Assembly (NCBI RefSeq): GCF_000092105.1
Contig: NC_014148.1
Span: 1,890,001-1,922,000 of the forward strand
DNA from: Planctopirus limnophila DSM 3776
Lineage (GTDB): Bacteria; Planctomycetota; Planctomycetia; Planctomycetales; Planctomycetaceae
DNA length: 32,000 nt
Direction of reading: 5' to 3'
The notes under the pieces were generated by a model. The model searched no databases and had not been told where the DNA came from. It saw nothing but the letters and a program-made list of their open reading frames with translations. A program made the translations under genes and the position numbers. Every line of letters begins with the position of its first letter. Within the stretch, counting starts at the first letter, position 1. Below are positions 8,348-27,340 of this stretch, piece by piece.

Positions 8348-8383
8348 AGTCTCTTGAGATCGTTTGTTTCGAAATGCAAAGAC

Positions 8384-8419
8384 GGTGCGAAGAATGCTGA
8401 GTCAGGAACACTTCGCACC
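8384..8419. terminator. Hairpin between convergent kinase and aldehyde dehydrogenase genes
   Basis: Perfect 9-bp stem GGTGCGAAG (8384-8392) / CTTCGCACC (8411-8419) with an 18-nt loop. There is no clean U tract on either strand. Confidence 0.45.
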
Positions 8420-8451
8420 ATCTGTCTGCAATCGATATTACGAATTGTAAT

Positions 8452-10035
8452 TTATTGAAGCGTGAGTGGATCTCGCGTCCATTCCCCATTCTGCAGTCTC
8501 AAAAGACCGAGTGGATTCTGGTTTTGCAGGGCTGGAGGGAGCCGGTCGTCGCGGACATTGTCAAAACAATGCAGTGCCGCGAAGCGAGTGATTGACGCTG
8601 GCAGTCCGACAGCAGTAAATCCGGGATGCCCCGTCGCTGGAAACGGCCCGCCATGGTTCATCGCCGGAGAGACGGCAACGCCAGTCGGCATTTTATCGTT
8701 GAGCAGTCGTCCCACTTTCTGGCGGAGAATGCCGGCCAATTGAGTGTACGCCGCTTCGTCTTCTGTTGAGGACGTGGCCGAATAAATGGCCCCTGTCAGG
8801 TTACCTTCCAGAGCTTTCAGGCAGGCGGAAATCTCGGAGAGGTTTTCACACATCACAAAGAGAGCACCGTTGCCAAAGATCTCCGTCTGAAAGCCGGCAG
8901 CATTGGCCACGAATTGTTGTCCTGATACTTGCAGCAGCGTGTTCTCGCAAGTACAGGGGTTTGGCCCCGCACTACCACCGCAAAGAAGTTTGGCACCCAG
9001 GCTGGATAACGTTTCGACTCCTGAAAGGAAACTCCGTTGCACCCCCGGCCCAAGCATCGGTTGCGGAGTATTTGCCGTGAAAGATTTCACAACATTGGCG
9101 ACAAACTGATCGGCGGTTGAATCAGAGATCAGGAATACGACACCGGGGTTGGTGCAGAACTGGCCCGAACCCATCAGGCAACTGGCAGCATATTCTGTGG
9201 CTAAAGCCTCGCCGCGTTCTGCCAAGGCACCGGGCAGGAAGACAACAGGGTTCACACTCGATAACTCGAGATAGATTGGCTTACCGACAGCATCAGCGGA
9301 AGATTTCAAATACAGCCCCGCATGCCGGCCACCGGTATAGCCAATAGCTCCCAAAAGTGGATGCGAAACCAGTTGTGCGCCATCCTCGTGGCTGGTTCGG
9401 TAAATCAATTGAACAAAGCCACTGGGCATGTGTGTTTCTTCAGCGGCAGCCTGGGCTTCTTCTGCGAAAAGCTGCGTCGTCCGAGGGTGAGACGAATGTC
9501 CTTTGGCAATTACAGGGTTCCCTGCGGCAACGGCTGCAGCAAAATCACCGCCTGCGATACTGTTGAAGGCAAAGGGGAAATTGTTGGGCCCAAAGACGGC
9601 CACCGGTCCAATCGGTGCCAGCGTCGAACGGATGTTGAGTTTGCCATCGATTGTGGGACGCATCCATGAACCTTCACGAGCCCAGTGAGCAGCCAGCTTG
9701 AGCTGGCTGACCGTGCGCGGAAGTTCGGCATCCGCGAGACGTGGTTTGACCGGCAGGGCAGTTTCGGCATGGGCAGCTGCGATCAGATCTTCCGCTCTGG
9801 CTTCAATTCGCTCGGCATAGCGCTCCAGGAATGCGGCAAAACGCTCACCGGGCCATGCTCGACACTCTTGAAAAGCGCGATCCGCAGAATGCAGGGCTTT
9901 ATCAACTTCAAACCACGGACTGACTGGGAATTTCTCTTCCAAAGTTTCCCCAGTGCGAGGATTCATCGCATGGAATGTGGCGGCTCCTTCACTGGAAATC
10001 CAATGTCCGTCAATCAGCACTTTGGCAGTTGGCAT
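8452..10035 (-). CDS. NAD(P)+-dependent aldehyde dehydrogenase (alpha-ketoglutarate-semialdehyde / 2,5-dioxovalerate dehydrogenase-like)
   Basis: 527 aa with the ALDH superfamily motifs KGHSSHP, YLELSSVNPV (general-base Glu region) and GQFCTNPG (catalytic Cys). The length and FCTNPG variant fit the KGSADH/NADP-ALDH subgroup. Confidence 0.85.
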   Translation of the reverse strand: MPTAKVLIDGHWISSEGAATFHAMNPRTGETLEEKFPVSPWFEVDKALHSADRAFQECRAWPGERFAAFLERYAERIEARAEDLIAAAHAETALPVKPRLADAELPRTVSQLKLAAHWAREGSWMRPTIDGKLNIRSTLAPIGPVAVFGPNNFPFAFNSIAGGDFAAAVAAGNPVIAKGHSSHPRTTQLFAEEAQAAAEETHMPSGFVQLIYRTSHEDGAQLVSHPLLGAIGYTGGRHAGLYLKSSADAVGKPIYLELSSVNPVVFLPGALAERGEALATEYAASCLMGSGQFCTNPGVVFLISDSTADQFVANVVKSFTANTPQPMLGPGVQRSFLSGVETLSSLGAKLLCGGSAGPNPCTCENTLLQVSGQQFVANAAGFQTEIFGNGALFVMCENLSEISACLKALEGNLTGAIYSATSSTEDEAAYTQLAGILRQKVGRLLNDKMPTGVAVSPAMNHGGPFPATGHPGFTAVGLPASITRFAALHCFDNVRDDRLPPALQNQNPLGLLRLQNGEWTRDPLTLQ

Positions 10036-11252: not shown

Positions 11253-11292
11253 ACCATGAGCGAGGTTGGTGGTGTGCAATAAAGGGTTGGTC

Positions 11293-12519
11293 ATGACTTC
11301 AAAGCTGCCTGTTACGGTGCTTTCCGGATTTCTGGGTGCGGGGAAAACAACACTTCTGAATCATGTACTGAGGAATCGAGAAGGGATGAAAGTCGCCGTC
11401 ATCGTCAATGACATGGCGGAGATAAATGTCGATGGACAACTGATCAAAACCGGTGGGGCCGAGCTTTCGAAAGTTGAAGAGAAGCTGGTCGAATTCTCGA
11501 ATGGATGTATTTGTTGCACATTGCGAGAAGATCTGTTGGCTGAAGTCAGCCGCCTGGCTCGTGAAGGGCGTTTTGATTATCTGCTCGTCGAATCCACGGG
11601 AATTTCTGAGCCGTTGCCTGTGGCTGAGACCTTTACGTTTGTCGATGAGCAGGGGGCTTCGCTCAGTGAAGTCGCCACGCTGGATACGCTGGTGACAGTG
11701 GTCGATGCCGTCAATTTTCCCAAAGAAATAGAATCCATCGAGACTCTCGCTGAACGCCGCATGGGGCTTGGTGATGACGATGATCGTGACGTCGCCCAAT
11801 TGCTGATGGATCAGATCGAGTTCGCAAACGTGCTGATCATCAGCAAGTGCGATCTGGTAACAGCCGCGCAGTTGGAAGGGCTGGAATCGCTCCTGCACCA
11901 GCTCAATCCTGATGCGCGAATTGTGCGTGCCACACGTGGGCAGCTCCCTTTGAATGAGATCCTGAACACGCAGAGATTTTCGATGGATTGGGCCGGGCAA
12001 TCGCAGGATTGGCTGGTTGTTCCTCGGGGTGCTGAAGTTTCGGAAAGTGAAACCTATGGCTTTGACAGCGTGATTTATCGTGCCCGGCGACCCTTTCACC
12101 CGGCTCGACTCTTCGAAGCCATACAAAGCCCGCTGTTTGACAGTATTGTGCGTTCGAAGGGAATTGTCTGGCTGGCCACAAGGCATGATTATGCCGGGCA
12201 ATGGTCGCAAGCGGGAGGAGTGTTTGCTCTCGATCCTGCCGGAACATGGTTTGCCGCGATCGGTGGTCTCGATGATGTGGAAGATCCTGAAGAGCGAGCC
12301 GTCCTAGAGTGCCAATGGCAGGAACCTTTTGGCGATCGCCGACAGGAGCTGGTCCTGATTGGTCAGGGGCTGTCTGAGGAGGCTGTCTCGGAACTCCTTG
12401 ATGATTGCTTACTCACAGATGAAGAAATCGAAGCAGGAAGTTCTGTCTGGTCGGCCTGGGAAGATCCTTTCACCCCATGGAATTTTGTGGACCAGGATGT
12501 GACAGGCTCGGACAAGTAA
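11293..12519 (+). CDS. COG0523 / CobW-family GTPase metallochaperone (zinc-chaperone-like)
   Basis: Motifs are the P-loop [15 protein letters not shown], the metal-binding motif GCICCTL (CxCC), [16 protein letters not shown] and a C-terminal CobW_C-like domain ([20 protein letters not shown] ... ELVLIGQG). The ORF is open from GTG 11266; ATG 11293 ([12 protein letters not shown]) fits family N-termini better. Confidence 0.88.
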
Positions 12520-12660
12520 CAGACACTGGGGCGTGGCAGGCTCGATGACTTCTCGATTCAGGCCATTCTGAAAAGCATGCCTCTGCTTTAGTGCGATGAG
12601 ACTTGTTTTCTTTGGTGGGATCGTGCCGTTCCAGCAGGTCGTTTCCCTCGGTATGAGGTC

Positions 12661-13413
12661 GTGGTGCGCAAACTCATCGATAAGTCAAAATATCTGGGAG
12701 TTTCCAAAGAACCGCAACTTGCAGAGGTTGGGAGTATTTTTCGGCGGTTATGGTTGAGCTCGTCGGAAAGACAAACTCTTGATCGTGAACCGGGCTTGTC
12801 GCAAGGGGCGACATTCGATGAATCCAGAGCGATCGACCGTCAGCTTCGCGACTCACAGAAATTCATGATGAGTAAGTGCGGAGAAGAATTCGTCTCGGAG
12901 GTCTCGGAGCTTCTCGACTATTATTTGTGGTGCCTGGGTCAGGATATTCGCACAGAAGGGAATCTGTTACTGCGGGCCGGTGGACGAAAAGTTCCTTGCC
13001 CCAGGCCTCATCCCTGCAGCAGCCGCTATGAGTGGAACTTAGGTGAGAATCTGCTCGTACTGTGGGGCTTTGGAGTCTGCTTTGGAAATCCACATGATGG
13101 TCGGGTGATGCTGCGCCGATCAGGATTGGCACCACTCTTTCTGGTGGATGCTCGACGGATCGATTTTGGCTGGTCCACGGAAGAAATGCCCCCGCAAAGA
13201 ACGGCCACAGAGGGTGAATGGCCGGCACTCAAAATGTTGTTAGGACGTCTCTTTGTTGCGCTCGCCGAACTCGAAAAATCGATCCTCTCCCAGGCTCTGC
13301 CAACCCATCGCGAGACCTGTTTTTCGAAATGGGACAAACGCAAGTTCTCAAACCCTCTGCAGCCCGGCCCCCAATGGTTGCGGCATGACATAACTCTTCA
13401 ATCAATTGAGTAG
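12661..13413 (+). CDS. hypothetical protein (no recognisable family)
   Basis: 250-codon ORF from GTG 12661; the first in-frame ATG is at 12865 (MMSKCGEEF). Composition is protein-like (LWGFGVCFGNPHDGRVMLRRSGLAPLFLVDARRIDFGW). I recognise no motif. Confidence 0.5.
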   Translation: MVRKLIDKSKYLGVSKEPQLAEVGSIFRRLWLSSSERQTLDREPGLSQGATFDESRAIDRQLRDSQKFMMSKCGEEFVSEVSELLDYYLWCLGQDIRTEGNLLLRAGGRKVPCPRPHPCSSRYEWNLGENLLVLWGFGVCFGNPHDGRVMLRRSGLAPLFLVDARRIDFGWSTEEMPPQRTATEGEWPALKMLLGRLFVALAELEKSILSQALPTHRETCFSKWDKRKFSNPLQPGPQWLRHDITLQSIE

Positions 13414-13666
13414 TATTCTTGTGGTCACATGGATGACGTTGATTCAAGGACTTCAGGGGACGTGTTATCCCGAATACTTGAGTTATACCGATTATGCATG
13501 ATTACGTTGGCATGTGTTGGTGGTTTGGGGTCTGTAAGAAAACTGCGAAGATGGTGCAGACCCTAATTGACGTAGCGTGTTTGACGACTTCATACTGCGA
13601 GATCGTCAGGAGGGCGATGCACCTGCATGGAGGCTTCATCGAAAAGCCAACAGATCGTGATCGCAG

Positions 13667-15268
13667 ATGCTGCTTCCGCTCATTGTGACTTTGTTGTTCG
13701 TCACTCTGGTCAACACTGTATTTCAGTTGACCCAGTTTGATCTCGCTTATCGCTATTGGCGCAGTGTTTGGAAGAAACAGAAGCCAACATCCAGGCCGAT
13801 TGATCGCGAGCATTTGCCAGCCGTCACGATTCAGTTACCGATGTTCAATGAATCGATCATTGCACCCAGGATTCTCGAAGCCGTTTCGCGAATCGATTAT
13901 CCCCGGGATCGACTTCAGGTTCAGATTCTTGATGACTCGACAGATCATTCTCCGGAGATCATTGCGGGGATCCTGGAGGAATTGCGCCAATCTCAGCCGG
14001 AACTCAATATTGAGTATCTGCACCGCACCGATCGGCAGGGCTTCAAGGCGGGTGCTCTGCAAGCCGCCATGCCACTTGTGACAGGCGAGTTTATTGCGAT
14101 CTTTGATGCTGACTTCATCCCTCAGCCCGATTTTCTAACCCATCTGTTGCCTTACTTTGATTCCCCCGAAGTGGCGGTCGTGCAGAGCCGATGGGGCCAT
14201 TTGAACGCCCATGATTCTGTGCTGACGCAGGCTCAACAGTTCTTTCTGGATGGTCATCACTCCGTCGAACAAAATGGCCGTAACCGGGCTGGGTATTTTA
14301 TTACCTTTAACGGAACAGCCGGGATCTGGCAACGCTCTGCTATGGAGGCCGCTGGTGGCTGGAGTGCCGATACGCTCGTGGAAGATCTGGATCTCAGCTA
14401 CCGCACGCAAAGTCTCGGGTACCGGATTGTCTATGTCGAAGATTATGTCACTCCCGGAGAGCTCCCCAATTCCGTTTCAGGATTGCGGGTGCAGTTGTTC
14501 CGCTGGTTCAAGGGGAATGCCCAGGTCGGCTTGAAGATTCTGGGAAAAGTCTGGAAGCAACCTCTGCCACTCTCTGTCAAGATTCATGCGACAGCACAGC
14601 TCTTCGCACCATTTACGATGCTTTCAAGCTTGGTCATGCTGCTGATTACCGGTGCCTTGCCATTAATCCTTCATGCAGCACCCGAACATGCTGGTCTGGT
14701 CAAGCTCTGTTATATGGGTTTCGTCTGGGTTCCGGCCGTTCTGCTGGTTTATGGAACCCCCCGCATTCGCTTTGATGAAGGCCCATGGTATATAAGGCTC
14801 GCAAAGCTGGTACCACGTACTTTTGTCTTTATGGCGATGATGACAGGGCTTTCCTGCCAAAGCAGTATCGCTGTCCTGGAAGCTGTCTTTAAGCGTGCCA
14901 ACCAATGGGTGGTGACTCCCAAGGGATTCAGCCAGCAGAGCAGTAAAAAGAAAGTACGTCGCAAACTGGCCTGGTATGTATGGCCGGATGCGTTTGTCAT
15001 TATTTACCTGATGGCATCAATTGTCATTGCCTGGAAATTCGAATTCTATGCACTGTTAGTGATCGAGGCGACATGGCTGGTGGGGTATCTATGGCTGTTT
15101 GGAGGAGCTGTCTGGGAGGCTTACGGAACGCCTGCGGCACCCTCCGTTGTCAAAATCAATCAACCCGAGAATGCCACAGTTGAAGGCAGGACGCTCCTCG
15201 AGTATGGAGTCGGTTCGGAAGGTGATAATGAATCAGTGACGACTGCACCAGCAGGAGCCACATTATGA
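13667..15268 (+). CDS. Processive family-2 glycosyltransferase, cellulose-synthase-like (CslA / CESA_CaSu_A2-type)
   Basis: 533 aa. An N-terminal TM helix is followed by a GT-A core with VTIQLPMFNE, ILDDSTD, DADFIP, VQSRWGHLN, FNGTAGIWQR, VEDLDLSYR and QLFRW (QxxRW), then about 5 C-terminal TM helices. Confidence 0.88.
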   Translation: MLLPLIVTLLFVTLVNTVFQLTQFDLAYRYWRSVWKKQKPTSRPIDREHLPAVTIQLPMFNESIIAPRILEAVSRIDYPRDRLQVQILDDSTDHSPEIIAGILEELRQSQPELNIEYLHRTDRQGFKAGALQAAMPLVTGEFIAIFDADFIPQPDFLTHLLPYFDSPEVAVVQSRWGHLNAHDSVLTQAQQFFLDGHHSVEQNGRNRAGYFITFNGTAGIWQRSAMEAAGGWSADTLVEDLDLSYRTQSLGYRIVYVEDYVTPGELPNSVSGLRVQLFRWFKGNAQVGLKILGKVWKQPLPLSVKIHATAQLFAPFTMLSSLVMLLITGALPLILHAAPEHAGLVKLCYMGFVWVPAVLLVYGTPRIRFDEGPWYIRLAKLVPRTFVFMAMMTGLSCQSSIAVLEAVFKRANQWVVTPKGFSQQSSKKKVRRKLAWYVWPDAFVIIYLMASIVIAWKFEFYALLVIEATWLVGYLWLFGGAVWEAYGTPAAPSVVKINQPENATVEGRTLLEYGVGSEGDNESVTTAPAGATL

Positions 15269-17181
15269 TGCACGCGTCGGGATCGTTGGCGACAGCCTTA
15301 TCGATCGACAGCTCAAATGAATTATTGAGCAAGCAGGGAGACCTGAGTTCAACCAATCGGGAAGTGAGCTCCAAAAGCGCAGGCGAAGTTTACTCTCAGG
15401 ATCATGGCGAACAGACAAGAATTGACTGGTCAAAATTCTGTTACCTGATGCTCCCATTCTGGCTTTTGCAACTGGTTCTGGTGTGTTTATCGAATGGCGC
15501 GTACCATGATGACGATGTGAGTCATTACATCATCTCCCGCAGAGCCTGGTCTCAACCCGTGCTGTTTCTCAATGTCTGGGGACGACCTGGGTTTACAATC
15601 CCGTATGCACTCACTGCAATCATCGGTTCGCCGCTGACAGGTTGGCTGGCTTGCCGTCTTCTGAGTGTGGCGATCTGTACGCTCACAGCGATTCTGACAA
15701 CGAAAGTGGCGGCACGTTTGAACTTCAGATACCCGGAATGGTGCGGGCCACTGTTCATGCTGATTCCTCTAAACTTTCAGCTCTCGATTACTACATTAAC
15801 TGAGACCATCTGCGGGCTCTATTTCATCTTGGCGACATGGCTTTTCATCGAAAAGCGATGGTACCTCGCTGCGATTGTTCTGGGACTGACCATGCTGTCC
15901 CGTCACGAAGCAATTGTGACCGTAGCAGCCGGGTCGCTTATTCTCATCAGCTTAAGGCAGTTTGGCCCGGCGCTCATGGTCTGGCTCCCAGAACTGGTGT
16001 GGAATGCAGCCTGTTATCGCTTTCAGTCATACGATATGCCCATCAACAGATATTTGTCGGGAAATGCGAACCATAGCTACGGAAGTGGTGGGCTGGTGCA
16101 TGGCTTCTGGATGTGGGCTGAAGCTGCTGGTACTCCAGCAATCGTACTCATTGTCGTCGGTGGAGTCCTGTTACTCATCAGATCCATGTCCGAAACTTCA
16201 TTTCAATCCGCTTGGATTCAGTCATCGGATGCCCCGAAAAGTCGTTCATTGATAAAAATATTCTGGCGGGCAATCTCTGAGAAAAACACCATCTTTCTAG
16301 GTTTATGGCTGGTTGTCGTCGGTGCGTGGGGAACTGTGCTCCTCAATACGGCATTGTATTCACTCAACTTTTTCGCCAGCGGTGGCTACGGTCGTTTTCT
16401 TGTGCCAGCCGCACCATGGATGGTGCTATGTATTCATGCCGCTCTTGCAGAGCTGGCCGAGTCGATGAAATCAGAAACTGTAGTAGCAACTTCTCACTCA
16501 GGTGGTCTTGTAAGGAATGTTAATCATACCTTGAGGCTGGTGGTCTCTCCGTTGGGACTGGCTGTCCTGATGTGGCTGGCAGTGATCTCCTCAATCATCT
16601 TGATGTCATTGCAGACGGATCGCTGGTTCTTGAACTACTTGGTGTCCTATATTCTTTCGCCCGCTGTCACAATTGTGGCTGCTTGTCTATTTGTAATGAT
16701 GTTCTGTGTGAGAAATAAGAACTCTCAGTTTTCTGGACTGCTCGCTAAGTCGGCATGTCTTGTTGGCAGTCTCGCCTGGGCCATGGCCTTTGTGGGAGCA
16801 TCACAACCACTCAGACTGACTCCGACTCAAGCCCTCTACGCAGATGCAGTGCATTGGATTGAGCAGAGAGAGTCGGACGATAACGTCTATGTCACCGCGA
16901 ACTCCCCTTTAGGTGAGGTCTTTGCTGCAGAGGCCGGGTTTCATGATATTTCTATTTATACACTTCCGTGGCTCAAGCAGCCATTTTATCTGTTGGTCGA
17001 TACGCAGTGCATGATGGAAAGAGAACGTAAAGATCTCTTAGAGAGATATAAAGCTCACAAAGTTCATGAAGTGGTAACGACAGAGCGAATCTCTCAGACG
17101 ACCGGTGAATCGTCTCATGCTGTAGAGATCTATTATGCCGGGATCCAGGAATCACAGCTTGCAAGTTATGCCGCACCGTAA
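15265..17181 (+). CDS. Polytopic membrane protein, candidate GT-C-fold (PMT/ArnT-like) glycosyltransferase
   Basis: 638 aa. Its ATG overlaps the upstream stop (ATGA at 15265-15268). By eye it has about a dozen hydrophobic helices. An acidic motif YHDDDVSHYIISRRAW directly follows TM1, as in the first periplasmic loop of GT-C enzymes. A C-terminal soluble domain of about 110 aa follows. The family call is by architecture, not alignment. Confidence 0.6.
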   Translation: MMHASGSLATALSIDSSNELLSKQGDLSSTNREVSSKSAGEVYSQDHGEQTRIDWSKFCYLMLPFWLLQLVLVCLSNGAYHDDDVSHYIISRRAWSQPVLFLNVWGRPGFTIPYALTAIIGSPLTGWLACRLLSVAICTLTAILTTKVAARLNFRYPEWCGPLFMLIPLNFQLSITTLTETICGLYFILATWLFIEKRWYLAAIVLGLTMLSRHEAIVTVAAGSLILISLRQFGPALMVWLPELVWNAACYRFQSYDMPINRYLSGNANHSYGSGGLVHGFWMWAEAAGTPAIVLIVVGGVLLLIRSMSETSFQSAWIQSSDAPKSRSLIKIFWRAISEKNTIFLGLWLVVVGAWGTVLLNTALYSLNFFASGGYGRFLVPAAPWMVLCIHAALAELAESMKSETVVATSHSGGLVRNVNHTLRLVVSPLGLAVLMWLAVISSIILMSLQTDRWFLNYLVSYILSPAVTIVAACLFVMMFCVRNKNSQFSGLLAKSACLVGSLAWAMAFVGASQPLRLTPTQALYADAVHWIEQRESDDNVYVTANSPLGEVFAAEAGFHDISIYTLPWLKQPFYLLVDTQCMMERERKDLLERYKAHKVHEVVTTERISQTTGESSHAVEIYYAGIQESQLASYAAP

Positions 17182-17279
17182 GAGAACGATACAAACTCTT
17201 TGGATATCTGCTGAGTCGTTGTTCCTGACGTTTAAATTCAGTTTGTATGAATCTTGCGAAAAGTACTCGGAGCGAATGA

Positions 17280-18368
17280 ATGTTGTTAAACGATATGTGT
17301 GCGATTTCTCCGGCAACGAAGAACCAGCGTGGATTTACGCTCATTGAGTTGCTGGTTGTGATTTCGATTATTGCTGTGCTGATTGCGCTGTTGCTACCTG
17401 CTGTCCAACAGGCTCGTGAAGCTGCCCGGCGCACACAGTGCCGTAATCACTTGAAGCAGTTGGGATTGGCGATTCACAATTATCATGATGCCTCCCGAAT
17501 GCTTCCCCCACGTCAGACCGGCCCGGGGACTCCGGCGTTATCAGCTTCGACTGGAGCCAATCGCTGGAGTGGTTTTGTGGCGCTACTGCCGTTCATTGAT
17601 CAGGCACCACTGTTTTCTCAAATCCAGTCGGTCAATCAGGTTCCCTGGGGAGGGAATGCTGTCTGGCAGGCAAAAATTCCTTCGCTGGTGTGTCCCTCCG
17701 ATTCCACCGGCATTGATCCTTCGGGGTCACCGAATCAGCAGGGGTACTTGAATTATGTTTTCAGTGCGGGTGACACCCTTTCTTCGTCCGGAAGTAATTC
17801 GACCTCAACAACACCCGTAATTGTTGGTTCCCGTGGTGGTTTTGGATCTCTGAAGTGTTACCGTCTGGCAGATATCACAGATGGCAGCAGTAACACCATT
17901 GCTATGTCAGAGGGAGTCAGGCCAACGAGAATTCGAGAAATTGGTATTCGCACTGAGTTAGCCGACGGGACCAATCCGACATCTTGCCAGATTCAATTGC
18001 CATCGGGTTCCCGTGAGTACAGCAGCGTCATACCCGTCTATCTGGGCGATACCGCCTTTGGTTATCGTTGGGCAGATGGTGCTGCATATTTTACGTCGTT
18101 TTCGACAATTCTCCCCCCCAACTCAGCCTCCTGTTTTGTGACCGCTCCAGATCACTGGGGGACTGGTTTTTTTAGTGCCAGCAGTCGTCATACAGGTGGG
18201 GTCCATGTCCTGATGCTGGATGGCTCTGTGAGATTTGTCTCCGACAACATCGATACAGGGACTTTGTCGAGCCAGCCTCCTCAACCAGATACCGGGACAG
18301 CTTCTCCTTACGGTGTCTGGGGCCGCCTGGGTTCTCGTTCAGGGGGGGAAGTGATCGGTGAGTTCTAA
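17280..18368 (+). CDS. DUF1559 / H-X9-DG protein with prepilin-type N-terminal cleavage/methylation signal
   Basis: Class III signal KNQRG|[52 protein letters not shown]. The C-terminal [16 protein letters not shown] matches H-X9-DG. This is a planctomycete hallmark family. Alternative start ATG 17295. Confidence 0.92.
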
Positions 18369-18457
18369 TGGGTGTCATCTGGAATATGTTCTGACCTGAT
18401 TTTCTGTGGTGTTACTTTTTCGGCACAGTTGCCAGATCTCTAGGCATTGAAGTCTTT

Positions 18458-19696
18458 ATGTACTATATCGCTGGCGGATTATTACTGCTCTCGATGGCTA
18501 TGGTGCTCATTCACATGGTGATTGCGTACCGTGTGCTGAGATCGTTGAGTCATTGCGCACAGCCTCCTTATCCGGATGAGCAATGCCCCAAAGCGATGGT
18601 CGTGATGTGCCTGCGTGGCTCAGATCCTTTTCTGGAAGCAACACTACGTTCCATCTTTGCACAGGATTATCCTCAGTATGTCGTGAAGCTGATCGTGGAT
18701 TCTGTTCACGATACAGCTTGGGAGATCGTGCACCGCATCAAGGCAGAACTCCATGCCAGTCATGTGACGATACAACCTCATCTGAAGCGGAGAGCGGGTT
18801 GCAGTCTGAAGTGCGGCAGCCAGATTGAAGCGCTGGAAACGATCGACCCGTCGATAGAAATGCTGGCATTTCTTGACGCGGATACAGTGCCGCACGCGAC
18901 CTGGTTGCGAGAATTGGCCGCGGCTTTAAATCAACCGGGTGTTGGCGCAGCGACGGGAGGACGCTGGTATGCACCGGAAGCTGCCACACCTGGGGCGGTC
19001 ATGCGCTATCTGTGGAATGTGGCAGCACAGGCCTTGATGACGGAGCTGCATATTGCCTGGGGTGGCACTTTGGCATTTCGCCGGGAGGTTTTTGATCAGT
19101 TGAAACTGGCTGAACGATGGAGCAAAGCCATCTGTGAGGACACGATGACACAGGATGCCTTACGAGAGATGAATCTTAAGGTACAGTTTGTCCCTACGTT
19201 AATGATGGTGAATCGAGAAGATATCAGTGTGAATTCCTTCCGCCGGTGGGTGACCAGACAGTTACTCAATACCAGGCTTTATCACTCGAACTGGTGGTTT
19301 GTCTTGTTGCATGGCCTGTCTGTCTTCCTGGTGGTCGAGGGCTCGTTGATCTTCTCTGTAGTGGCAGCTCTGCGTGGATATGGAAACGAGGCCTTAATGG
19401 CGATTGGTGCTGCCGTGTTGTTCCAATCGACGCTGTGCCTGCTGCTGTTATTGCTGGAGAGAGCGGTTCTGAGTCTTTCCAGCCCGCGTCGAAGGCTCTG
19501 GGGAGCATGGTGGGTCTGGGCTTTGATACCGGTTTGGATGATGTTTGTCCAAACCATGAATCTCTGGTGTGTCCTGCGAGCTCAATTTGCTCGTCGGATC
19601 GAATGGCGAGGGGTGACTTATGAAGTCTTGTCACCCTTCCAGATACGCATTGTCGAAGAGACGGAAGTTATTGTGTCGGCCACCCAGTCGATTTGA
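18458..19696 (+). CDS. Membrane-embedded family-2 glycosyltransferase (GT21 / ceramide-glucosyltransferase / HpnI-like architecture)
   Basis: 412 aa. An N-terminal TM helix is followed by a GT-A core with MVVMCLRGSDPFLEATLRSIFAQDYP, LAFLDADTVP, GGTLAFRREVF, CEDTMT and FRRW, then three C-terminal TM helices. Confidence 0.8.
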   Translation: MYYIAGGLLLLSMAMVLIHMVIAYRVLRSLSHCAQPPYPDEQCPKAMVVMCLRGSDPFLEATLRSIFAQDYPQYVVKLIVDSVHDTAWEIVHRIKAELHASHVTIQPHLKRRAGCSLKCGSQIEALETIDPSIEMLAFLDADTVPHATWLRELAAALNQPGVGAATGGRWYAPEAATPGAVMRYLWNVAAQALMTELHIAWGGTLAFRREVFDQLKLAERWSKAICEDTMTQDALREMNLKVQFVPTLMMVNREDISVNSFRRWVTRQLLNTRLYHSNWWFVLLHGLSVFLVVEGSLIFSVVAALRGYGNEALMAIGAAVLFQSTLCLLLLLLERAVLSLSSPRRRLWGAWWVWALIPVWMMFVQTMNLWCVLRAQFARRIEWRGVTYEVLSPFQIRIVEETEVIVSATQSI

Positions 19697-19701
19697 AGTG
19701 A

Positions 19702-21219
19702 ATGCTTTTTGTGATCATGGCCTTGCAGGTGCCGACCGCAAAAGTCGCGTATGCGGTTCAAGTAACGATCGAGAAAAACAGAACTGTCACTCGGCATCGG
19801 TGTGTCCAGTTCAATATGTTTGGAAATCAGCTGGCGATCATGGTGAACTCGATGGAAACTGAAATCGAAACGAGTCAATTCCTGACTGTTGATGATCGAC
19901 TTGGACGTTTGATCCCTTTGGAAAGTTCTGAATTGACCGGGTCTGGTGAAACTCTGAGTGGATTGATGGGTTCGATTCGCCCATTAGCTTTTGAACCCGA
20001 ACTGGTTCCGAAGGTCTGGGGAGGATGTAAACTGCTCGAGCACGCCGCGCGAAAGCAGAAGACCTCTGACTATTCGTCATTGGTTAACGGCAATGAGATT
20101 TGCCGGATTGGCGAATCGTGGGAGATCTCAGGCGTCGAAGGAAAATCGTCGCGTCTCAAGATGGTCGGCCAGCATCCATCGGAAAGTGGTCAGCAGGAGA
20201 TCTGGACACTGCAGCAACTCTGGCAGAAATTTGGGGCATCGCTCGCCGGCTCTTCGTTCGCAACGGAGCAATCTGATGAGCAACCACCTGAGTTTCCGTG
20301 GCTGGTGAAGCATCTGGAATGCAACGACTGGCTCTCGCTGCAGGTCCATCCCGCTGTAATTCCTGGATGTAACTCCGGTGGATTGCCTGAAAAAGAACAA
20401 CTGAGGCTGTTCAATCCGGATTCAGCTAACAACAAAGAGACATCAGAAAGTCCTACCGAGTCACTTGATGAAGTGCGAGGAAAGAACGGCAAATTTGAGT
20501 TCTGGCTCGTGGTGGAAACTGCGATTGATAGTGAAATTATTGTTGGTCCCGTGAGAGAAGATCAGCGGGAAGAGTTAGCACAACAGGTCGAAGCGGGAGC
20601 GCGTGAGCATGAACTTCTGGAAGCTGGCTTGTTGACACGACTTCCAGTCGAGGCAGGACAATGGGCGATTCTGCCTCCGGGAAGTGTTCATACTGTTCGT
20701 GGAGTGACCATTCTGGAGGTTCAGACTCCAGTCGATGTGACCTACCGAATTGATGATTATGGGCGGCGTGGAAGTGATGGCGAACTGCGTACGCTGCATC
20801 CGCGGGAGGCTGCCCGGGCGATCCGTTCGGGAACTGGACTTCCACAGGTTTCACATTCGTTACTCTGGGAAAGCCATTCGATAAGTCATGTCGATCAAAC
20901 GACACAGCATGAGCCGTCATCGAGATTGATTCGGCATATCACGGCTCCCCACGATCCATTTCAAATTCGCTTTCGAAAGATTGGAAACGATCTTCAATTC
21001 CTGAATCTTGAAGAAATGACCGTCTTGTGTGTCATTGATGGTGAGCTTGAATTAATCTGGGAGCATGGCACAGAACTCCTTGCGCCACGGGATGTTCGAT
21101 TGCTTCCGGTTGATCTGAGAGAAGTATCGCTCAGGTCAAAAGGAGCATCGGTATCAATTTTGCTGCTGACATCGTCTTCCTCTCTCGGTTGCAACTCACC
21201 AGCGAGTGTCCCACGATAA
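19702..21219 (+). CDS. Type I phosphomannose isomerase-like cupin protein
   Basis: Motifs LVPKVWGG, IGESWEISG, FPWLVKHLECNDWLSLQVHP, GKFEFWLVV, PPGSVHTVRGVTILEVQTPVDVTYRIDDYGRR and LRTLHPREAARAI follow the bacterial class I PMI pattern. Family-like N-termini start near MGSIRPLAFEP (ATG 19966), so the 88-codon extension from 19702 is doubtful. Confidence 0.75.
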   Translation: MLFVIMALQVPTAKVAYAVQVTIEKNRTVTRHRCVQFNMFGNQLAIMVNSMETEIETSQFLTVDDRLGRLIPLESSELTGSGETLSGLMGSIRPLAFEPELVPKVWGGCKLLEHAARKQKTSDYSSLVNGNEICRIGESWEISGVEGKSSRLKMVGQHPSESGQQEIWTLQQLWQKFGASLAGSSFATEQSDEQPPEFPWLVKHLECNDWLSLQVHPAVIPGCNSGGLPEKEQLRLFNPDSANNKETSESPTESLDEVRGKNGKFEFWLVVETAIDSEIIVGPVREDQREELAQQVEAGAREHELLEAGLLTRLPVEAGQWAILPPGSVHTVRGVTILEVQTPVDVTYRIDDYGRRGSDGELRTLHPREAARAIRSGTGLPQVSHSLLWESHSISHVDQTTQHEPSSRLIRHITAPHDPFQIRFRKIGNDLQFLNLEEMTVLCVIDGELELIWEHGTELLAPRDVRLLPVDLREVSLRSKGASVSILLLTSSSSLGCNSPASVPR

Positions 21220-21329
21220 ACCTGAACAGATGGTTCATGATCGAGAGCGGATTGTTCAATACTTAGGCCCAGACAAGTCGGTGTGAACTGCACAGGATTA
21301 TTGGTTTAAGGGCTATCAGGACCACAGGT

Positions 21330-21938
21330 ATGATTCAGACAACGGGCCAGCAAAAGACAGTTTCATCGACTGAAGATTTCTCTGGTCGTAGCCCTGGTAT
21401 CGCCCTAGATCCAGTGCATCGTAGTCCATTACCTGATCCTGGTGATTGGCATTTGCTGCCAGATCTGATTACCGCTGATCAAATTCATACTGTGAATCCT
21501 CAGCGTTTTGAGATGCATCAGCTCGATGGAATCCTTTCCATCGATGATGATCGGCAGGAAATTCTGGGCTATCGGCATCTGGCAGACAACCCTTTTGCCT
21601 CTGAGATCAATGCGAAGACTGTTGGTCAGGGAACCATCCAGGCTGGGCCACGCTGGACGGAAGTGGCGGCTCAGGTGAGTGCGTACTATCTCAAGCGTCT
21701 CGATTTTGGAGGCATGGGGATCAATTTCGGAATCGGTGGAATCTATGGCCTCGAATTTCATCACGCAGCCCTGACCGGTCACCGATTATACGTGCTTTCG
21801 CGAGCTGTAAGTGTTGATGCCCCAGTTTCGGCCCGCATGGAATTTGAAGGCTACGTCGATTCGACCCCATTCTTCAGCGGTGAAATACTTCTGATGCCGC
21901 TGAAGTGCCTCGATCGCAGTGCAGGTCGATCAGTTTGA
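21330..21938 (+). CDS. hypothetical protein, possibly hotdog-fold (FabA/FabZ-like)
   Basis: 202 aa. After a disordered-looking N-terminus, the segment IHTVNPQRFEMHQLDGILSIDDDRQEILGYRHLADNPFA resembles the xPxRxPxxxxDxV...G entry motif of FabZ-type dehydratases. The resemblance is weak and no catalytic His motif is evident. Confidence 0.45.
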   Translation: MIQTTGQQKTVSSTEDFSGRSPGIALDPVHRSPLPDPGDWHLLPDLITADQIHTVNPQRFEMHQLDGILSIDDDRQEILGYRHLADNPFASEINAKTVGQGTIQAGPRWTEVAAQVSAYYLKRLDFGGMGINFGIGGIYGLEFHHAALTGHRLYVLSRAVSVDAPVSARMEFEGYVDSTPFFSGEILLMPLKCLDRSAGRSV

Positions 21939-22028: not shown

Positions 22029-22093
22029 GCGTGGGCTCTCGGCGCGGCCCAAGAGCCCACGCAGCGACTGCCCCCAGGGGGGCGGCAGGTCGC
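22029..22093. other. GC-rich twin hairpin element in the convergent spacer
   Basis: Hairpin 1 is an 11-bp stem at 22029-22039 / 22052-22062 (core GTGGGCTCT/AGAGCCCAC). Hairpin 2 is directly adjacent at 22064-22093 (GCGACTGCCCCC AGGG GGGCGGCAGGTCGC, about 12 bp with two bulges). Local GC is visibly much higher than the flanks. Confidence 0.6.
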
Positions 22094-22478
22094 AGTACCC
22101 TTGCTTGCGGCTAACGTCTCAGGATGTGCAATTCAATGACGCATGAAAACGTAGCTTTCTTCGAGTGAAGGTCAAAAGATAACCCGAGCTTTAGCACGGG
22201 AATTCTGCCATTGCTGAACGTTGAATCAAAAATACAACATGGGCTGTTGAGGTTTATTGACGATTGTGGAACTCCTGCAACAGATCTCTTGAGTGCAGCC
22301 GTCTCCGAGAGAGTTACATGTGAGCTTTTCGCGGAGGGTTGGCCGATGGGAGTGAGTTGTTCGCCTCGCTTCCGCACGAGCGCCGATTATCTCGCCATGG
22401 CAAGAGATCAAGAGCGCGTCGCGATGAGGTCAATCATTAACCACTCGCCAAAGACATTTGAACTTGCCCTCATCCCGG

Positions 22479-22536
22479 CCTTCTCCCGTCGGAACGGGAG
22501 AAGGGGCAAAATGCTTGCCTGCTTATCATCGGCAAG
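22479..22536 (-). terminator. Two hairpins immediately downstream of the coiled-coil gene stop
   Basis: Perfect 11-bp stem CCTTCTCCCGT (22479-22489) / ACGGGAGAAGG (22494-22504) with tetraloop CGGA. A second 6-bp stem is CTTGCC (22514-22519) / GGCAAG (22531-22536). No U tract. Confidence 0.5.
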
Positions 22537-22546
22537 TCCGAACGAC

Positions 22547-24016
22547 TCAATCCCGGGGTGGCGTTCCAAGAAATCGCCGCCAGCGTCTTTCGGCAGATTT
22601 CGTATTGTGAACTGCTGGTGTGGGATCTTCCTTCTGAGCGGAATTGGGTCTGTCCCGCATGATTTCCTGCTGCTGACGAACCTTCGCCTGATCGCGTGCA
22701 CAGCGGGCTCGCTCCAGCGAAAGTTCGACTTCAGCCAGGCGTAAATGTTCCTCCAGGCGAACCTGTAAAGAACGCAATTCATCGACAAGTTCTGTCGGTG
22801 CGTGTTCCAGAGCAGCCCAGTTGGGTGGCCCACCAGAGATTTCGCGGGCTCTCAATCGCCGAATCAGCCAACTGATGTAAGCGTCGCGCTGATTGATCGC
22901 TGTTTCAAACTCCTGTTGCTGGCAATCTTCGATGTTAAAAGGGAGTGGGACTTCTGGTTCGGTAAAATCGGTCTCAACCAGCGATTCGACACCCGATCCA
23001 CTCGTTCCTTCTTCGAAAGTATCAGGTGGTTCATCGACAGAGAGCATCTGCGATTTAAGACTCTCCCAGAGAACACTGTTTCCTTCAGATGAGGATTCGT
23101 GATGAGCAGTTTGTTCGTCAGCCAGCAGCGAATCTAAAGTCTGGTCAACTGCTGCATTGAGCGATGACAACTGAGACGTTGACCCCATATAGAAGGCATT
23201 TTGGCTTTTCAGTTGTTCAAACTGGTCGGACAGATAATCCCGAATGTCTGCCAGGCGAGAATCCAGTTGTCCCAGCAATACAGCAGGTTGCATGGCATCC
23301 CACTGTTCAAGAAACCTTTGCATATCTGCCGTTAATGTGGCATGTCGATCAACACTGGCACCAAATGATGAGCTGACAACCTTCCGATCTGCCCCGGTGC
23401 GATGCAGTCGATCAAGCTGTTCAGCAGCTTGTTCCAGCCGTTCAGTGAGTGCCTGGATCAGGCTGTTCTTGTTTTCCAGCTCGATTTCAAGGGATTGAAT
23501 TCGCGAAAGGGCAGCAGCTTTGAAGTGCTCGTTCGCGCGTTGCTGCTCCTCAAGGATTGACCGTTCTTTCCGGTGACGTCCATGCTCAGTGGCAACACCC
23601 CGATGGGCAGGATTTGCAACCGATGCTGGATGCATGCGCTGCTTTGATATCTGGAGTTCTGTAGTGATTTTGGGAGACGTGATCTGGCCTTCCGGGAGGT
23701 GATCCAACGAGGAAAGGTGAACGTCCTCACTCCAGGTCTGCTCAACAGAGTGATCACTCAACGGTGTTTCGGCTGTTCGTGCGCGGATCAGATCCTCGAA
23801 GTCTTGTGCAGAGATCTCTGCCGTCTCAGGTGACCTTTCCCAATTCGCGGGAAGACCGGAGAAATGCTGCCCGGCACTGGGCGTCTCTGTCGATTGAATG
23901 TCGGTCGGATCGACAGAGTCTGCTGATGAATCCATTTCAAACAAAGATTTCTCAACTTGCTCGAGATTTTCGAACAGTCGGTCTTCATCGACTGGAAGTT
24001 CTGATTCATTCCGCAT
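22547..24016 (-). CDS. Acidic coiled-coil protein of unknown function
   Basis: 489 aa. The N-terminus is very acidic and Ser/Glu-rich (MRNESELPVDEDRLFENLEQVEKSLFEMDSSADSVD). Heptad-like stretches include SLEIELENKNSLIQALTERLEQAAEQLDRL and LQVRLEEHLRLAEVELSLERARCARDQAKVRQQQE. The C-terminus is basic. There are no enzymatic motifs. Confidence 0.65.
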   Translation of the reverse strand: MRNESELPVDEDRLFENLEQVEKSLFEMDSSADSVDPTDIQSTETPSAGQHFSGLPANWERSPETAEISAQDFEDLIRARTAETPLSDHSVEQTWSEDVHLSSLDHLPEGQITSPKITTELQISKQRMHPASVANPAHRGVATEHGRHRKERSILEEQQRANEHFKAAALSRIQSLEIELENKNSLIQALTERLEQAAEQLDRLHRTGADRKVVSSSFGASVDRHATLTADMQRFLEQWDAMQPAVLLGQLDSRLADIRDYLSDQFEQLKSQNAFYMGSTSQLSSLNAAVDQTLDSLLADEQTAHHESSSEGNSVLWESLKSQMLSVDEPPDTFEEGTSGSGVESLVETDFTEPEVPLPFNIEDCQQQEFETAINQRDAYISWLIRRLRAREISGGPPNWAALEHAPTELVDELRSLQVRLEEHLRLAEVELSLERARCARDQAKVRQQQEIMRDRPNSAQKEDPTPAVHNTKSAERRWRRFLGTPPRD

Positions 24017-24679: not shown

Positions 24680-25387
24680 TCACTCGGCAATGACTTCAGA
24701 GTTCTCGGCACGGAATCGATAACCAACTCCACGCACTGTCTCCACAATATCTGCCAGTGCCCCCAGCTTCTGTCTTAACGAACGCACATGAACATCAATC
24801 GTTCGTTCGAGTGCATTGGCATCTTCACCTCGGCAACGATCCATCAATTCATTTCGGCCAAAGGGTCGGCCAGGTGAACGTGCCAGAGTCCAGAGCAATC
24901 GAAATTCGGTGGGTGTCAGATGCAACTCTTCGCCATTCAGGCGAGCCGTATGATTGATCCGATCAATCTCGATTCCTCTCGTCACAATCACATCTCGTGA
25001 TTGCTCACCCGCCTGAGATCGTCGCAACAGAGCCTTGATTCGATGAATCAGGGGCTTCACTTTAAACGGCTTGGCCACATAATCATCCGCCCCCATGTTG
25101 AAGCCGACAATCTCGTCAACTTCCTCTGCTCGGGCAGTGAGCATCAAAATCCTGCAGTTCGGTAGCTTTGGGTCACTGCGTAGCTGACGGCACACTTCAA
25201 GGCCATCGATCACAGGGAGCATCAGGTCAAGAATCACCAGATCCGGCGTCATGGCCTGTGCTCGCCGCAGACCATCCTGACCATCAGAGGCCGACGTGAC
25301 TTCGAACCCCTCTTTTTCAAGATTGTAAGTCAGAATATCGATCAGAGATCTTTCATCTTCGATCAAAAGAACTTTCGGCTTGGCCAT
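24680..25387 (-). CDS. phoB: Phosphate regulon response regulator, OmpR/PhoB family
   Basis: Receiver domain KVLLIEDE...DLVILDLMLPVIDG...MLTAR...GADDYVAKPF. Winged-helix domain LTPTEFRLLWTLARSPGRPFGRNELM...RTIDVHVRSLRQKL...IETVRGVGYRF. It sits in pst/phoU/phoR context. Confidence 0.9.
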   Translation of the reverse strand: MAKPKVLLIEDERSLIDILTYNLEKEGFEVTSASDGQDGLRRAQAMTPDLVILDLMLPVIDGLEVCRQLRSDPKLPNCRILMLTARAEEVDEIVGFNMGADDYVAKPFKVKPLIHRIKALLRRSQAGEQSRDVIVTRGIEIDRINHTARLNGEELHLTPTEFRLLWTLARSPGRPFGRNELMDRCRGEDANALERTIDVHVRSLRQKLGALADIVETVRGVGYRFRAENSEVIAE

Positions 25388-25701
25388 ACAACCCCAATGA
25401 TGACGACTGAGACAAGAACTCGTTGGTCAAATGAGTGGATTCTGAAGAATCAAGTAGCCAGAAACATTTCTCCGTTTGCCAGGCAATTTAAGCTGCAGGC
25501 AACTTCCGAAGATTACCGTATAAATACCTCAAATCTTTTTTGCGTAAGAATAGCCGAAGGATTCTCGCCGTCACTCGCTGGAAGTGGGTGAAAGTGTTTA
25601 TTCACAAGAACTTCATCAACTGACTGTGCGAATTCCCCGTGACATATTTTTTCAACGACCTGAGATTTTCAGTGACCTGAGATCTTGTCGATGGCGTTGC
25701 C

Positions 25702-26376
25702 TTACGCAGGGCCTGTCTCCAAGCGGTTGCGATGTCGGATGATCTCACCTTCGACAAGATAAACCACATCTTCGGCAATATTTGTCGCGTGATCAGCAAC
25801 TCGCTCGATCTGTCGGCACACACTGAAAAGGTGCATGTGCAATTCAATAAGTTGTGGCTGCCGCTGCATCCGCAGAATGAGATCGTGAATAATCTCTCTA
25901 TTGAGGTTGTCAACGCGATCATCTGTCTGGCAGACATCGCGGGCCAGCTTGACATCCATGTCCACATACGAGTCGATACTGCGATGCAGCATGCTCAGTG
26001 CCAGATGTGACATCTCGCGAAAATCGTCCGGTACGTGGACTTCACCACAACGGATAATAGAAAGCGCACGCTCAGAGATATTCACCCCCAGATCAGCGAC
26101 TCGCTCGAGCTCACCAGAGATCTTCATCACGGTCGTAATTCGTCGCAGGTCGACGGCCACTGGCTGATGCAGTGCGAGGAGTTTGAGACATTCCTCCTCG
26201 ATCTGCACGTCCATGCGATCGATTTCGTCATCTTGAGCCGGGATCTCCTCGGCCTTCTCGTAATCCCGGCGGTGCAGGGCATCGACGGCTGAATCAATCA
26301 GTTCCTCAACGCGGGCACACATCGTGAGCACGTTTCGATGCAGAGCATCAAGGTCGCGAATGAGGTGAATCGCCAT
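25702..26376 (-). CDS. phoU: Phosphate signalling complex protein PhoU
   Basis: 224 aa with two PhoU repeats (DDEIDRMDVQIEEECLKLLALHQPVAVDLR and DDRVDNLNREIIHDLILRM ... ERVADHATNIAEDVVY). It lies directly downstream of pstB. Confidence 0.92.
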   Translation of the reverse strand: MAIHLIRDLDALHRNVLTMCARVEELIDSAVDALHRRDYEKAEEIPAQDDEIDRMDVQIEEECLKLLALHQPVAVDLRRITTVMKISGELERVADLGVNISERALSIIRCGEVHVPDDFREMSHLALSMLHRSIDSYVDMDVKLARDVCQTDDRVDNLNREIIHDLILRMQRQPQLIELHMHLFSVCRQIERVADHATNIAEDVVYLVEGEIIRHRNRLETGPA

Positions 26377-26450
26377 AGACCACGCCCTTAAGTACTGACT
26401 GGAAAAAGGACTGATAATTCATGTTTTACATGCAGTTACACCAGAAATGA

Positions 26451-27332: not shown

Positions 27333-27340
27333 AAGTTGCC

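Follow-up and report, generated by a model that had tools for sequence, protein, structure and literature searches.

What do six neighbouring genes of Planctopirus limnophila DSM 3776 make, and do they belong together? The genes (Plim_1478–1483, here called genes 1–6) lie in a window of 32,000 nt, i.e., the whole stretch of DNA that was analysed (NC_014148.1, positions 1,890,001–1,922,000). A preliminary description of this DNA had regarded them as a self-contained pathway for a mannose-containing glycan or glycoconjugate, with steps on both faces of the cytoplasmic membrane. That these are glycosylation genes is supported by the analyses presented here. As for the pathway, the comparison of gene neighbourhoods supports a modular envelope-glycan system, centred on gene 1 and equipped with interchangeable partners, and not a fixed six-gene route. 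The parts of this system are already known in kind (a synthase-type GT2 glycosyltransferase, a GT-C enzyme, and a pilin-like protein); their combination appears to be undescribed. A literature search found no paper describing the Plim_1478–1483 cluster or the combination of a cellulose-synthase-like GT2 with a GT-C enzyme.

Folds and motifs of the proteins encoded by genes 1 and 2

What kind of enzyme does gene 1 encode? The Pfam model Glyco_tranf_2_3 matches it at 6e-25, and a sequence search of the PDB returned BcsA (1e-23) and the archaeal mannosyltransferase PcManGT (2e-20), for which a literature search gave no characterising paper that would name its product; there was no match of the GtrB/ArnC/DPMS type at E ≤ 0.001. 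A model of the protein made with AlphaFold2 (AF2) from an alignment of 46 sequences had a predicted template modelling score (pTM) of 0.86. Comparison of this model with solved structures by Foldseek gave BcsA from E. coli and Rhodobacter as the best match (E 4e-21, TMq 0.62, about 500 columns), and the top 40 matches comprised BcsA, PcManGT, hyaluronan synthases (HAS), plant CesA, Chs1, and cyclic glucan synthase.

The protein contains the motifs D89-D90-S91, D147-A-D149-F, E239-D240, and Q276-LFRW280, as well as W414-V-V-T417-P418-K419-G, which is of the xVTxK type that we take to mark a gating loop, as in BcsA. Throughout the 46 homologues, D89, D90, D147, D149, E239, D240, Q276, R279, W280, T417, P418, and K419 are invariant. 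Hydrophobic helices occupy residues 1–24 and 309–478, and the protein ends after the last of these, with no PilZ domain. The fold, the motifs and the transmembrane helices on both sides bear out the earlier view of gene 1 as a processive GT2 synthase. According to the model, its product belongs to the membrane-integrated GT2 enzymes of the BcsA/CesA/HAS type and lacks none of their catalytic motifs; it would both form a polymer and translocate it. All NCBIfam scores of gene 1 are below cut-off (CelA, 117.7 vs 699; BcsA, 95 vs 992; PgaC, 94.8 vs 422), and families of the hallmark partners of bcs and pga operons (PilZ, BcsB, and BcsC; PgaA, PgaB, and PgaD) are absent from the window. This agrees with the earlier statement that the cluster matches neither of these operon types.

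Gene 2 encodes a polytopic protein with a disordered N-terminal region (residues 1–54), about 12 transmembrane helices, of which the first is at 55–75, and a small α/β C-terminal domain (540–625). The loop that follows the first helix includes short helices and carries Y80-HDDDVSHY-88 and W105-GRPGFT. The acidic first-loop motif YHDDDVSHY of this 638-aa protein had been pointed out before; D83, D84, and H87 within it are invariant in 44 sequences of the family, as are W105, R107, P108, G109, T177, T179, E180, R213, G373, G374, Y375, and R377. The AF2 model of gene 2 had a pTM of 0.85, and all of its Foldseek matches with a probability of 1.0 were GT-C enzymes: ArnT was best (5e-6, TM 0.44–0.52), and AglB, STT3, ALG12, ALG9, EmbB, AftD, ALG6, and PimE were also found. 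Thus, the check by AlphaFold and Foldseek that had been proposed for this protein confirmed a GT-C fold, and on the strength of the model gene 2 encodes a GT-C enzyme whose first extracytoplasmic loop bears the invariant acidic motif. The sugar donor of such an enzyme would be linked to polyprenyl phosphate.

To which family of GT-C enzymes does gene 2 belong? There was no match in Pfam, nor in a sequence search of the PDB even with a profile of the 44 sequences, and the sole NCBIfam match was a faint one to NF046093 (17.7 bits vs a cut-off of 150). Pfam models for GT87, PMT, DUF2079, or GT22 each touched only 2–3 of the 44 family members. Judged by sequence, gene 2 appears to lie outside every described Pfam GT-C family (PMT, PMT_2, GT87, GT22, ArnT, and others). 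A profile search of 1.84 billion representatives, counted as clusters at 50% identity, gave 1,251 clusters with a cut-off of E ≤ 1e-30, and 2,752 when this was relaxed to E ≤ 1e-3; this GT-C family of more than 1,000 sequence clusters is described by no domain library. The genome loci retrieved for this family are mostly from Planctomycetota, with a few from Herpetosiphon, Myxococcales, and Chthoniobacterales. One member (P0364, 1051 aa) has the gene 2 family domain at residues 533–1047, fused to an N-terminal half of unknown kind. On four contigs of the Phycisphaerae/Tepidisphaerales type (L010, L019, L026, and L062; loci are referred to here by such numbers), prepilin-type genes other than DUF1559 lie 2–4 kb from a distant gene 2 homologue.

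Gene 3 and the neighbourhoods of gene 1

Gene 3 is matched by N_methyl (1e-9), SBP_bac_10, i.e., DUF1559 (3e-52), and TIGR04294 (5e-11), and its product has an 11-residue prepilin N-terminal motif and an H304-X9-D314-G315 motif. All that had been said of it as a pilin-like DUF1559/H-X9-DG protein was found, namely N_methyl, DUF1559, and H-X9-DG. In the sequence search of the PDB, solved pilins matched the N-terminal helix only, and the DUF1559 domain itself had no match; the match of gene 3 to the model of the pseudopilin HpsC is faint (E 0.003). DUF1559 proteins are apparently restricted to Planctomycetes and have no assigned function; in P. limnophila, they form the largest paralogous family, with 68 paralogues among 4258 coding sequences (PMC10632474).

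Do the partners of gene 1 stay with it when its surroundings change? The bit scores of gene 1 homologues run from 1175 to 868 and 572–529, and then drop to 381; this sharp break (529 to 381) defines a subclade of gene 1 orthologues. It comprises 12 loci with 47–75% identity in about seven arrangements. The complete order of genes 1 to 6 is present only in Planctopirus (3 loci) and in L167 (75% identical), where the block includes the upstream cobW and hypothetical genes. The six genes are thus not a single co-conserved unit.

The remaining loci hold parts of the set. At L082 (52%), genes 1 and 2 have the same 4-nt overlap as in Planctopirus, and are followed by the start of a DUF1559 gene. Gene 1 is followed by a DUF1559 gene in L081, L168, and L173 (52–53%); this gene is 61–63% identical to gene 3 in L081 and L168, where the contigs are long enough to show gene 2 in convergent orientation, and the contig of L173 ends at the start of the DUF1559 gene. 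Orthologues of gene 3 with 60–83% identity adjoin gene 1 orthologues in L167, L168, and L081. L169 has DUF1559 genes on both sides of gene 1 (DUF1559, gene 1, DUF1559), and L170 contains a 935-aa GT-C enzyme of family GT87, a GT2, two methyltransferases, DUF1559, and gene 1. In L171 (234–9475), the cobW flank and genes 4–6 are as in Planctopirus (47–82% identity), and between them, in place of the gene 1/gene 3 part, stands a divergent pair of DUF1559 and gene 1 (35% and 50%), followed by genes 4, 5, and 6, without gene 2. This looks like the swap of a cassette at a conserved locus. In L172 (1602–4572), a gene 4 homologue (48%) comes immediately after gene 1 (51%), without DUF1559 or GT-C, in a context that differs, with SpoVR downstream; the two GT2 genes are thus linked independently of the Planctopirus synteny block. 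Of the 12 loci, 11 have DUF1559 together with gene 1, 7 have gene 2 (1 more has another GT-C), 6 have gene 4, and 5 have genes 5 and 6. Genes 5 and 6 were never found with gene 1 outside synteny blocks of the Planctopirus/L167/L171 type.

As a separate observation, the metagenome contig of L082 carries upstream of the module (1–10004) an 897-aa GT2–Wzy_C fusion, an ABC ATPase, a SIS protein, and a large methyltransferase, which suggests that this module is inside a larger surface-polysaccharide region.

The linkage of DUF1559 to gene 1 can be compared with its background. By chance, a DUF1559 gene would be within two genes on either side in 6% of cases, and the probability that 6 or more of 7 arrangements would show this is about 4e-7, a value that serves as a guide only, because the arrangements partly share ancestry. 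Prepilin motifs number 10 in the 147 kb of subclade loci, and in control loci 7 in 1.18 Mb and 1 in 0.92 Mb, none of those in the control loci being of the DUF1559 type.

Possibly, the six genes have no joint function, and are unrelated envelope genes that happen to run in the same direction and have stayed together in Planctopirus only through recent common ancestry. This would account for the complete order being confined to close relatives in which the flanking cobW and hypothetical genes are conserved as well, and for distant homologues of genes 1 and 2 not being neighbours. It would also suit the breadth of conservation, which varies from 2 to 37 of 45 Planctomycetes: genes 1–6 have a match in 4, 2, 37, 18, 19, and 33 of these, respectively (PMC10632474, Supplementary Data 6), so that genes 4–6 are far more widespread than genes 1 and 2, and gene 6 is in none of the other prokaryotes of that survey (PMC10632474). 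However, the partners of gene 1 recur in altered order or orientation and among different flanking genes, the overlap of genes 1 and 2 recurs in L082 at identities of only 52% and 35%, respectively, and the enrichment of DUF1559 is far above background. Random juxtaposition, which was named at the outset as the finding that would speak against the cluster, is not what gene 1 orthologues display, as they keep DUF1559, GT-C and/or gene 4 despite rearrangement. We consider it very unlikely that these genes have nothing to do with one another.

A second explanation takes the neighbourhood of genes 2 and 3 as its starting point. The GT-C enzyme would modify the DUF1559 pilin in the periplasm, and the GT2 enzymes would build the lipid-linked donor. 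Adjacency of a pilin gene and a GT-C gene is an established pattern: TfpW, encoded by a GT-C gene beside the pilin gene, arabinosylates the group IV pilins of Pseudomonas aeruginosa, a periplasmic modification. GT-C and pilin-like genes are neighbours in the window and in L167, L081, L168, and L082, and the structural matches of gene 2 include the protein-modifying enzymes AglB and STT3. The orthologues of gene 3 also have in common a Ser/Thr-rich patch, which would fit such a modification. Yet the steadiest pair is GT2 with DUF1559, not GT-C with DUF1559: L171 keeps both GT2 and DUF1559 without gene 2, and in L169 the GT2 gene is between two DUF1559 genes. The explanation is weakened because the link of GT2 to DUF1559 outlasts the loss of gene 2. 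Furthermore, gene 1 has the fold of a processive synthase with a gating-loop motif and is not of the GtrB/ArnC/DPMS type, and no flippase is present. Taken together, glycosylation of the pilin-like protein seems an unlikely purpose of the locus.

The patch itself comprises 15 residues at about residues 160–176 of gene 3, and its character is kept in the orthologues of L167, L168, and L081. It is possibly an O-glycosylation site, or else a flexible linker.

A proposed route for the glycan, and its relation to known systems

The reading that we favour, although we would put it slightly short of an even chance, takes the locus to be a modular system of the synthase type that makes an envelope glycan, with gene 1 at its core. 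Every biochemical step in it is one that we infer from the folds, motifs, and linkages described above. Gene 1 would polymerise a β-linked glycan from a nucleotide sugar at the cytoplasmic face and thread the chain through its own channel. Gene 2, which by virtue of the ATGA overlap would be made in step with gene 1, would work at the periplasmic face, on the chain as it emerges, with a polyprenyl-phosphate sugar supplied by genes located elsewhere, and would either add side residues or pass the chain on to an acceptor. With its pilin helix as an anchor, the DUF1559 protein would be the dedicated periplasmic partner, and might hold or pass the glycan by analogy with what has been proposed for hps pseudopilins. 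Genes 5 and 6 would be lineage-specific add-ons. The product is dispensable for laboratory growth: all six genes were scored as non-essential by transposon-insertion sequencing (Tn-seq) of P. limnophila, with insertion indices of 0.04–0.11 (PMC10632474, Supplementary Data 2 and 6), and the proposed envelope-glycan route would itself be non-essential.

Several points weigh against this reading. We know of no BcsA-type synthase that needs a GT-C enzyme, and no polyprenyl-phosphate sugar synthase, flippase, periplasmic scaffold, or outer-membrane channel was found near the cluster. Several of the subclade loci share ancestry and are not fully independent. No partner is obligatory, since L171 and L172 lack gene 2, and L172 lacks DUF1559 too. 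The DUF1559 genes of L169, L170, and L171 are just 28–40% identical to gene 3, and may be different paralogues. Of the 77 genome loci of the gene 2 family, none outside Planctopirus has a homologue of genes 1, 3, 4, 5, or 6 within 10 kb, and two distant gene 2 homologues adjoin IspF/VKOR or serA-type genes, i.e., unrelated contexts; the gene 2 family as a whole is not tied to the cluster, and its closest branch alone is. Conversely, 80 metagenome loci with gene 1 homologues of 35–46% identity contain neither a gene 2 homologue nor a DUF1559 gene. The parts assigned to two further genes are guesses, namely that gene 4 provides either a second sugar or a primer linked to lipid, and that gene 5 possibly feeds mannose-6-phosphate into GDP-mannose.

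Two terms of the preliminary description are not supported. The route can hardly be called self-contained, because the donor-lipid synthase (of the GtrB/DPMS type), the flippase, and the outer-membrane export component are missing, and to call its product mannose-containing would be to rely solely on the PMI (phosphomannose isomerase)-like gene 5. Steps on both faces of the membrane remain plausible, as the GT-A domain of gene 1 would face the cytoplasm and the acidic loop of gene 2 the periplasm.

The pairing of a BcsA-fold GT2 with a GT-C enzyme is not confined to the subclade. Among the 80 distant loci (L087–L166, with “cellulose synthase family” relatives of gene 1), 19 carry a polytopic GT-C protein of 440–480 aa that is GT87/MptB-like and nearly always just downstream on the same strand (e.g. 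L101:10001–12758, L112:7483–10278, and L125:10019–12772). This partner has the loop S-D-D-x-Y-R-F-x-W-D-G and matches GT87 and MptB models. That it and gene 2 are one family was considered and rejected, as hhalign gave a probability of 38% (E 3e-4), at best a marginal kinship. Thus, the pairing recurs with two different GT-C families. No published description of a GT2 paired with a GT87/MptB-like GT-C was found in the literature search.

These distant pairs, together with gene 4, lead to a third explanation, in which the product is a glycolipid or lipoglycan. Gene 4, gene 1, or both would glycosylate a membrane lipid (a hopanoid, ceramide-like lipid, or diacylglycerol) at the cytoplasmic face, and the GT-C enzyme would extend the flipped glycolipid outside, as in lipomannan synthesis of the PimE/MptB style, with DUF1559 as a bystander or handler. 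Gene 4 is matched in Pfam by Glyco_tranf_2_3 and Glyco_transf_21; it aligns end-to-end with HpnI, a hopanoid glucosamine glycosyltransferase, and weakly with ceramide glucosyltransferase, and its homologues, 48–75% identical, are near gene 1 homologues in L167, L171, and L172, being directly adjacent in the latter two. The GT87/MptB-like partners in the wider gene 1 family, the presence of PimE, EmbB, and AftD among the structural matches of gene 2, and a PMI-like gene that would suit a mannolipid point in the same direction. Against this, gene 1 retains features of polymer synthases, namely QxxRW, a gating-loop motif, and the complete bundle of helices that forms the channel, the strong linkage to DUF1559 is left unexplained, and gene 4 is far below the cut-off of HpnI (77.9 bits vs 310), with no hopanoid (hpn) genes in the window. 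Its earlier description as a membrane GT2 of GT21/HpnI-like build is supported; its identity as HpnI itself is rejected on that score. A glycolipid product appears improbable to us.

How does the favoured system, a synthase-type envelope-glycan route around gene 1, compare with those already known? With BcsA of bcs operons, gene 1 shares a transmembrane bundle, an xVTxK motif resembling that of the gating loop, and a GT-A domain in which D, DxD, TED, and QxxRW are all present. In contrast, PilZ, BcsB, BcsC, and BcsZ are missing here, gene 1 comprises 533 aa as compared with 730–870 aa for BcsA, and bcs operons are without the GT-C and pilin-like partners that are both present here. ArnC/ArnT, GtrA/B/C, and CsbB/GtcA/YfhO resemble the locus in that the gene for a membrane GT2 is beside one for a GT-C enzyme, the first extracytoplasmic loop of which is acidic; moreover, no solved structure matches gene 2 better than ArnT. 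These three-component systems of periplasmic glycosylation differ in having a small GT2 of the GtrB/ArnC/DPMS type, whereas the fold here is that of a polymer synthase; a flippase of the GtrA/GtcA type is missing here, and gene 2 is outside the Pfam GT-C families.

The lipomannan GT-C enzymes of mycobacteria and corynebacteria (MptB and PimE; GT87) offer a further comparison. The GT-C partners in the wider gene 1 family match MptB/GT87 models, and PimE (GT87), EmbB, and AftD are structurally similar to gene 2. However, gene 2 is only marginally related to the GT87/MptB-like partners, and the donor synthase of Actinobacteria is the DPMS-type Ppm1, not a BcsA-fold enzyme. The TfpW system differs from that considered here in having no BcsA-fold synthase and in that its pilin is a true type IVa pilin, not a DUF1559 protein; furthermore, DUF1559 is here linked more strongly to GT2 than to GT-C.

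The hps (hormogonium polysaccharide) locus of cyanobacteria has glycosyltransferase genes that are co-conserved with pilin-like (pseudopilin) genes, as is the case here, and its pseudopilins have been proposed to aid a synthase-type polysaccharide in leaving the cell (PMC12475490). This locus differs in comprising 13 genes, with glycosyltransferases of soluble type and four pseudopilins, and without a BcsA-fold synthase, GT-C, or DUF1559; between its pseudopilins and gene 3, the homology shown here is confined to the pilin N-terminus.

Neither Wzx/Wzy, ABC, nor synthases with partners of the BcsB or PgaD type, i.e., the textbook schemes, include the pairing of a BcsA-fold GT2 with a GT-C enzyme. 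That a BcsA-fold synthase, a GT-C enzyme, and a pilin-like DUF1559 protein amount to a previously undescribed type of synthase-dependent glycan system is nevertheless a claim we regard as doubtful. The link of one DUF1559 lineage to a GT2 of the polymer-synthase type, which is conserved and resists rearrangement, provides a concrete and testable hypothesis for the function of at least some DUF1559 proteins. If the system is of this undescribed type, it would give DUF1559 a first functional foothold, as a glycan-handling or glycan-accepting periplasmic protein, and the pairs of GT2 and GT87-like enzymes in other phyla would follow the same principle, in which a polymer is finished outside the membrane by a GT-C enzyme. 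Since the six genes are non-essential and P. limnophila is genetically manipulable, deletion and glycan analysis are feasible; if there were no common phenotype, the locus would be simply a set of uncharacterised envelope genes.

Layout of the locus, genes 5 and 6, and the surroundings

The features of the locus are collected in Table 1. The coordinates of the six co-directional open reading frames (ORFs) had been given exactly, and the ATGA at 15265–15268, in which the stop codon of gene 1 overlaps the start codon of gene 2, was read directly. The subsequent gaps are 98, 89, 5, and 110 nt as stated before, although the value of 5 nt hinges on where gene 5 starts.

Table 1. Genes 1–6 and candidate transcription signals, by position in the window
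Feature	Position	Strand	Description
Gene 1 (Plim_1478)	13667..15268	+	533 aa, membrane-integrated GT2, predicted BcsA-type processive synthase fold
Gene 2 (Plim_1479)	15265..17181	+	638 aa, GT-C-fold glycosyltransferase (by model), unclassified family
Gene 3 (Plim_1480)	17280..18368	+	362 aa, type IV pilin-like DUF1559 protein
Gene 4 (Plim_1481)	18458..19696	+	412 aa, second membrane GT2, GT21/HpnI-like build
Gene 5 (Plim_1482)	19702..21219	+	class I phosphomannose-isomerase-like cupin; alternative start ATG 19852
Gene 6 (Plim_1483)	21330..21938	+	202 aa, without family match
Sigma-70-like promoter match	13567..13596	+	70 nt 5′ of gene 1; weak, consensus match only
G+C-rich palindromic hairpin, 14 bp	22029..22062		between gene 6 and the convergent gene 22547–24016 (−)

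The promoter match 5′ of gene 1 agrees with the consensus at 9 of 12 hexamer positions; the region contains fewer such matches than its shuffles, so that the site is only a candidate. No riboswitch or other known RNA was found 5′ of gene 1. The hairpin is a candidate for a bidirectional terminator closing the unit, and nothing comparable was found in the gaps between genes 2 and 3, 3 and 4, or 5 and 6.

Gene 5 had been described as a type I PMI-like protein. Q214, H216, E266, and H330, which we take to be the metal ligands of PMI, and other PMI motifs are invariant in a comparison with five typical PMIs and three close orthologues, and the PMI of B. subtilis (1qwr) matches at 2.9e-12. The scores are below the curated cut-offs (TIGR00218, 64.8 vs 116.2; PF20511, 20 vs 22). 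The protein is 130–180 aa longer than typical PMIs of about 320 aa, since its N-terminus is extended and about 45 aa are inserted. The first 50 codons of the ORF (19702–19852) are poorly conserved and lie outside the P. ephydatiae orthologue (455 aa), the annotated start of which is equivalent to ATG 19852 (M51). This may be the true start of gene 5, and the gap between genes 4 and 5 would then be 155 nt, not 5.

For gene 6, a hotdog-like protein had been suggested. No Pfam match was obtained even at E ≤ 10, no NCBIfam match, and no meaningful match in the sequence search of the PDB; as there is no sequence match to hotdog families at any threshold, this identity is unsupported. Homologues with 62–64% identity are present in L167 and L171, and gene 6 accompanies genes 4 and 5 in Planctopirus-like synteny blocks.

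The remainder of the window contains a tRNA and genes for an aminotransferase, a SpoU methylase, a Ser/Thr kinase, an aldehyde dehydrogenase, TauE, and CobW, two genes without assignment, and a PhoB/PhoU/PstBACS/kinase block. The absence of Wzx/Wzy, polysaccharide co-polymerase, and outer-membrane secretin genes, noted before, extends over the whole window, as does that of OPX; likewise, there is no ABC exporter, the sole ABC transporter being the PstSCAB phosphate system.

Directly 5′ of the cluster (11266–13413) are a CobW-type GTPase gene (Plim_1476) and the gene for a 250-aa protein without family match (Plim_1477); these are also directly upstream in L167 and L171, with 81–82% and 46% identity. 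On the 3′ side, a 177-aa ORF (22211–22744, +) overlaps the 3′ end of the convergent 489-aa gene (22547–24016, −). It has no family match and is conserved weakly, at the DNA level only, and is probably not a gene. Further downstream, the block at 24680–31971 (−) encodes a PhoB-like response regulator, PhoU, PstB, PstA, PstC, PstS, and a PAS histidine kinase. Plim_1486–1490 were scored as essential in the published Tn-seq (PMC10632474).

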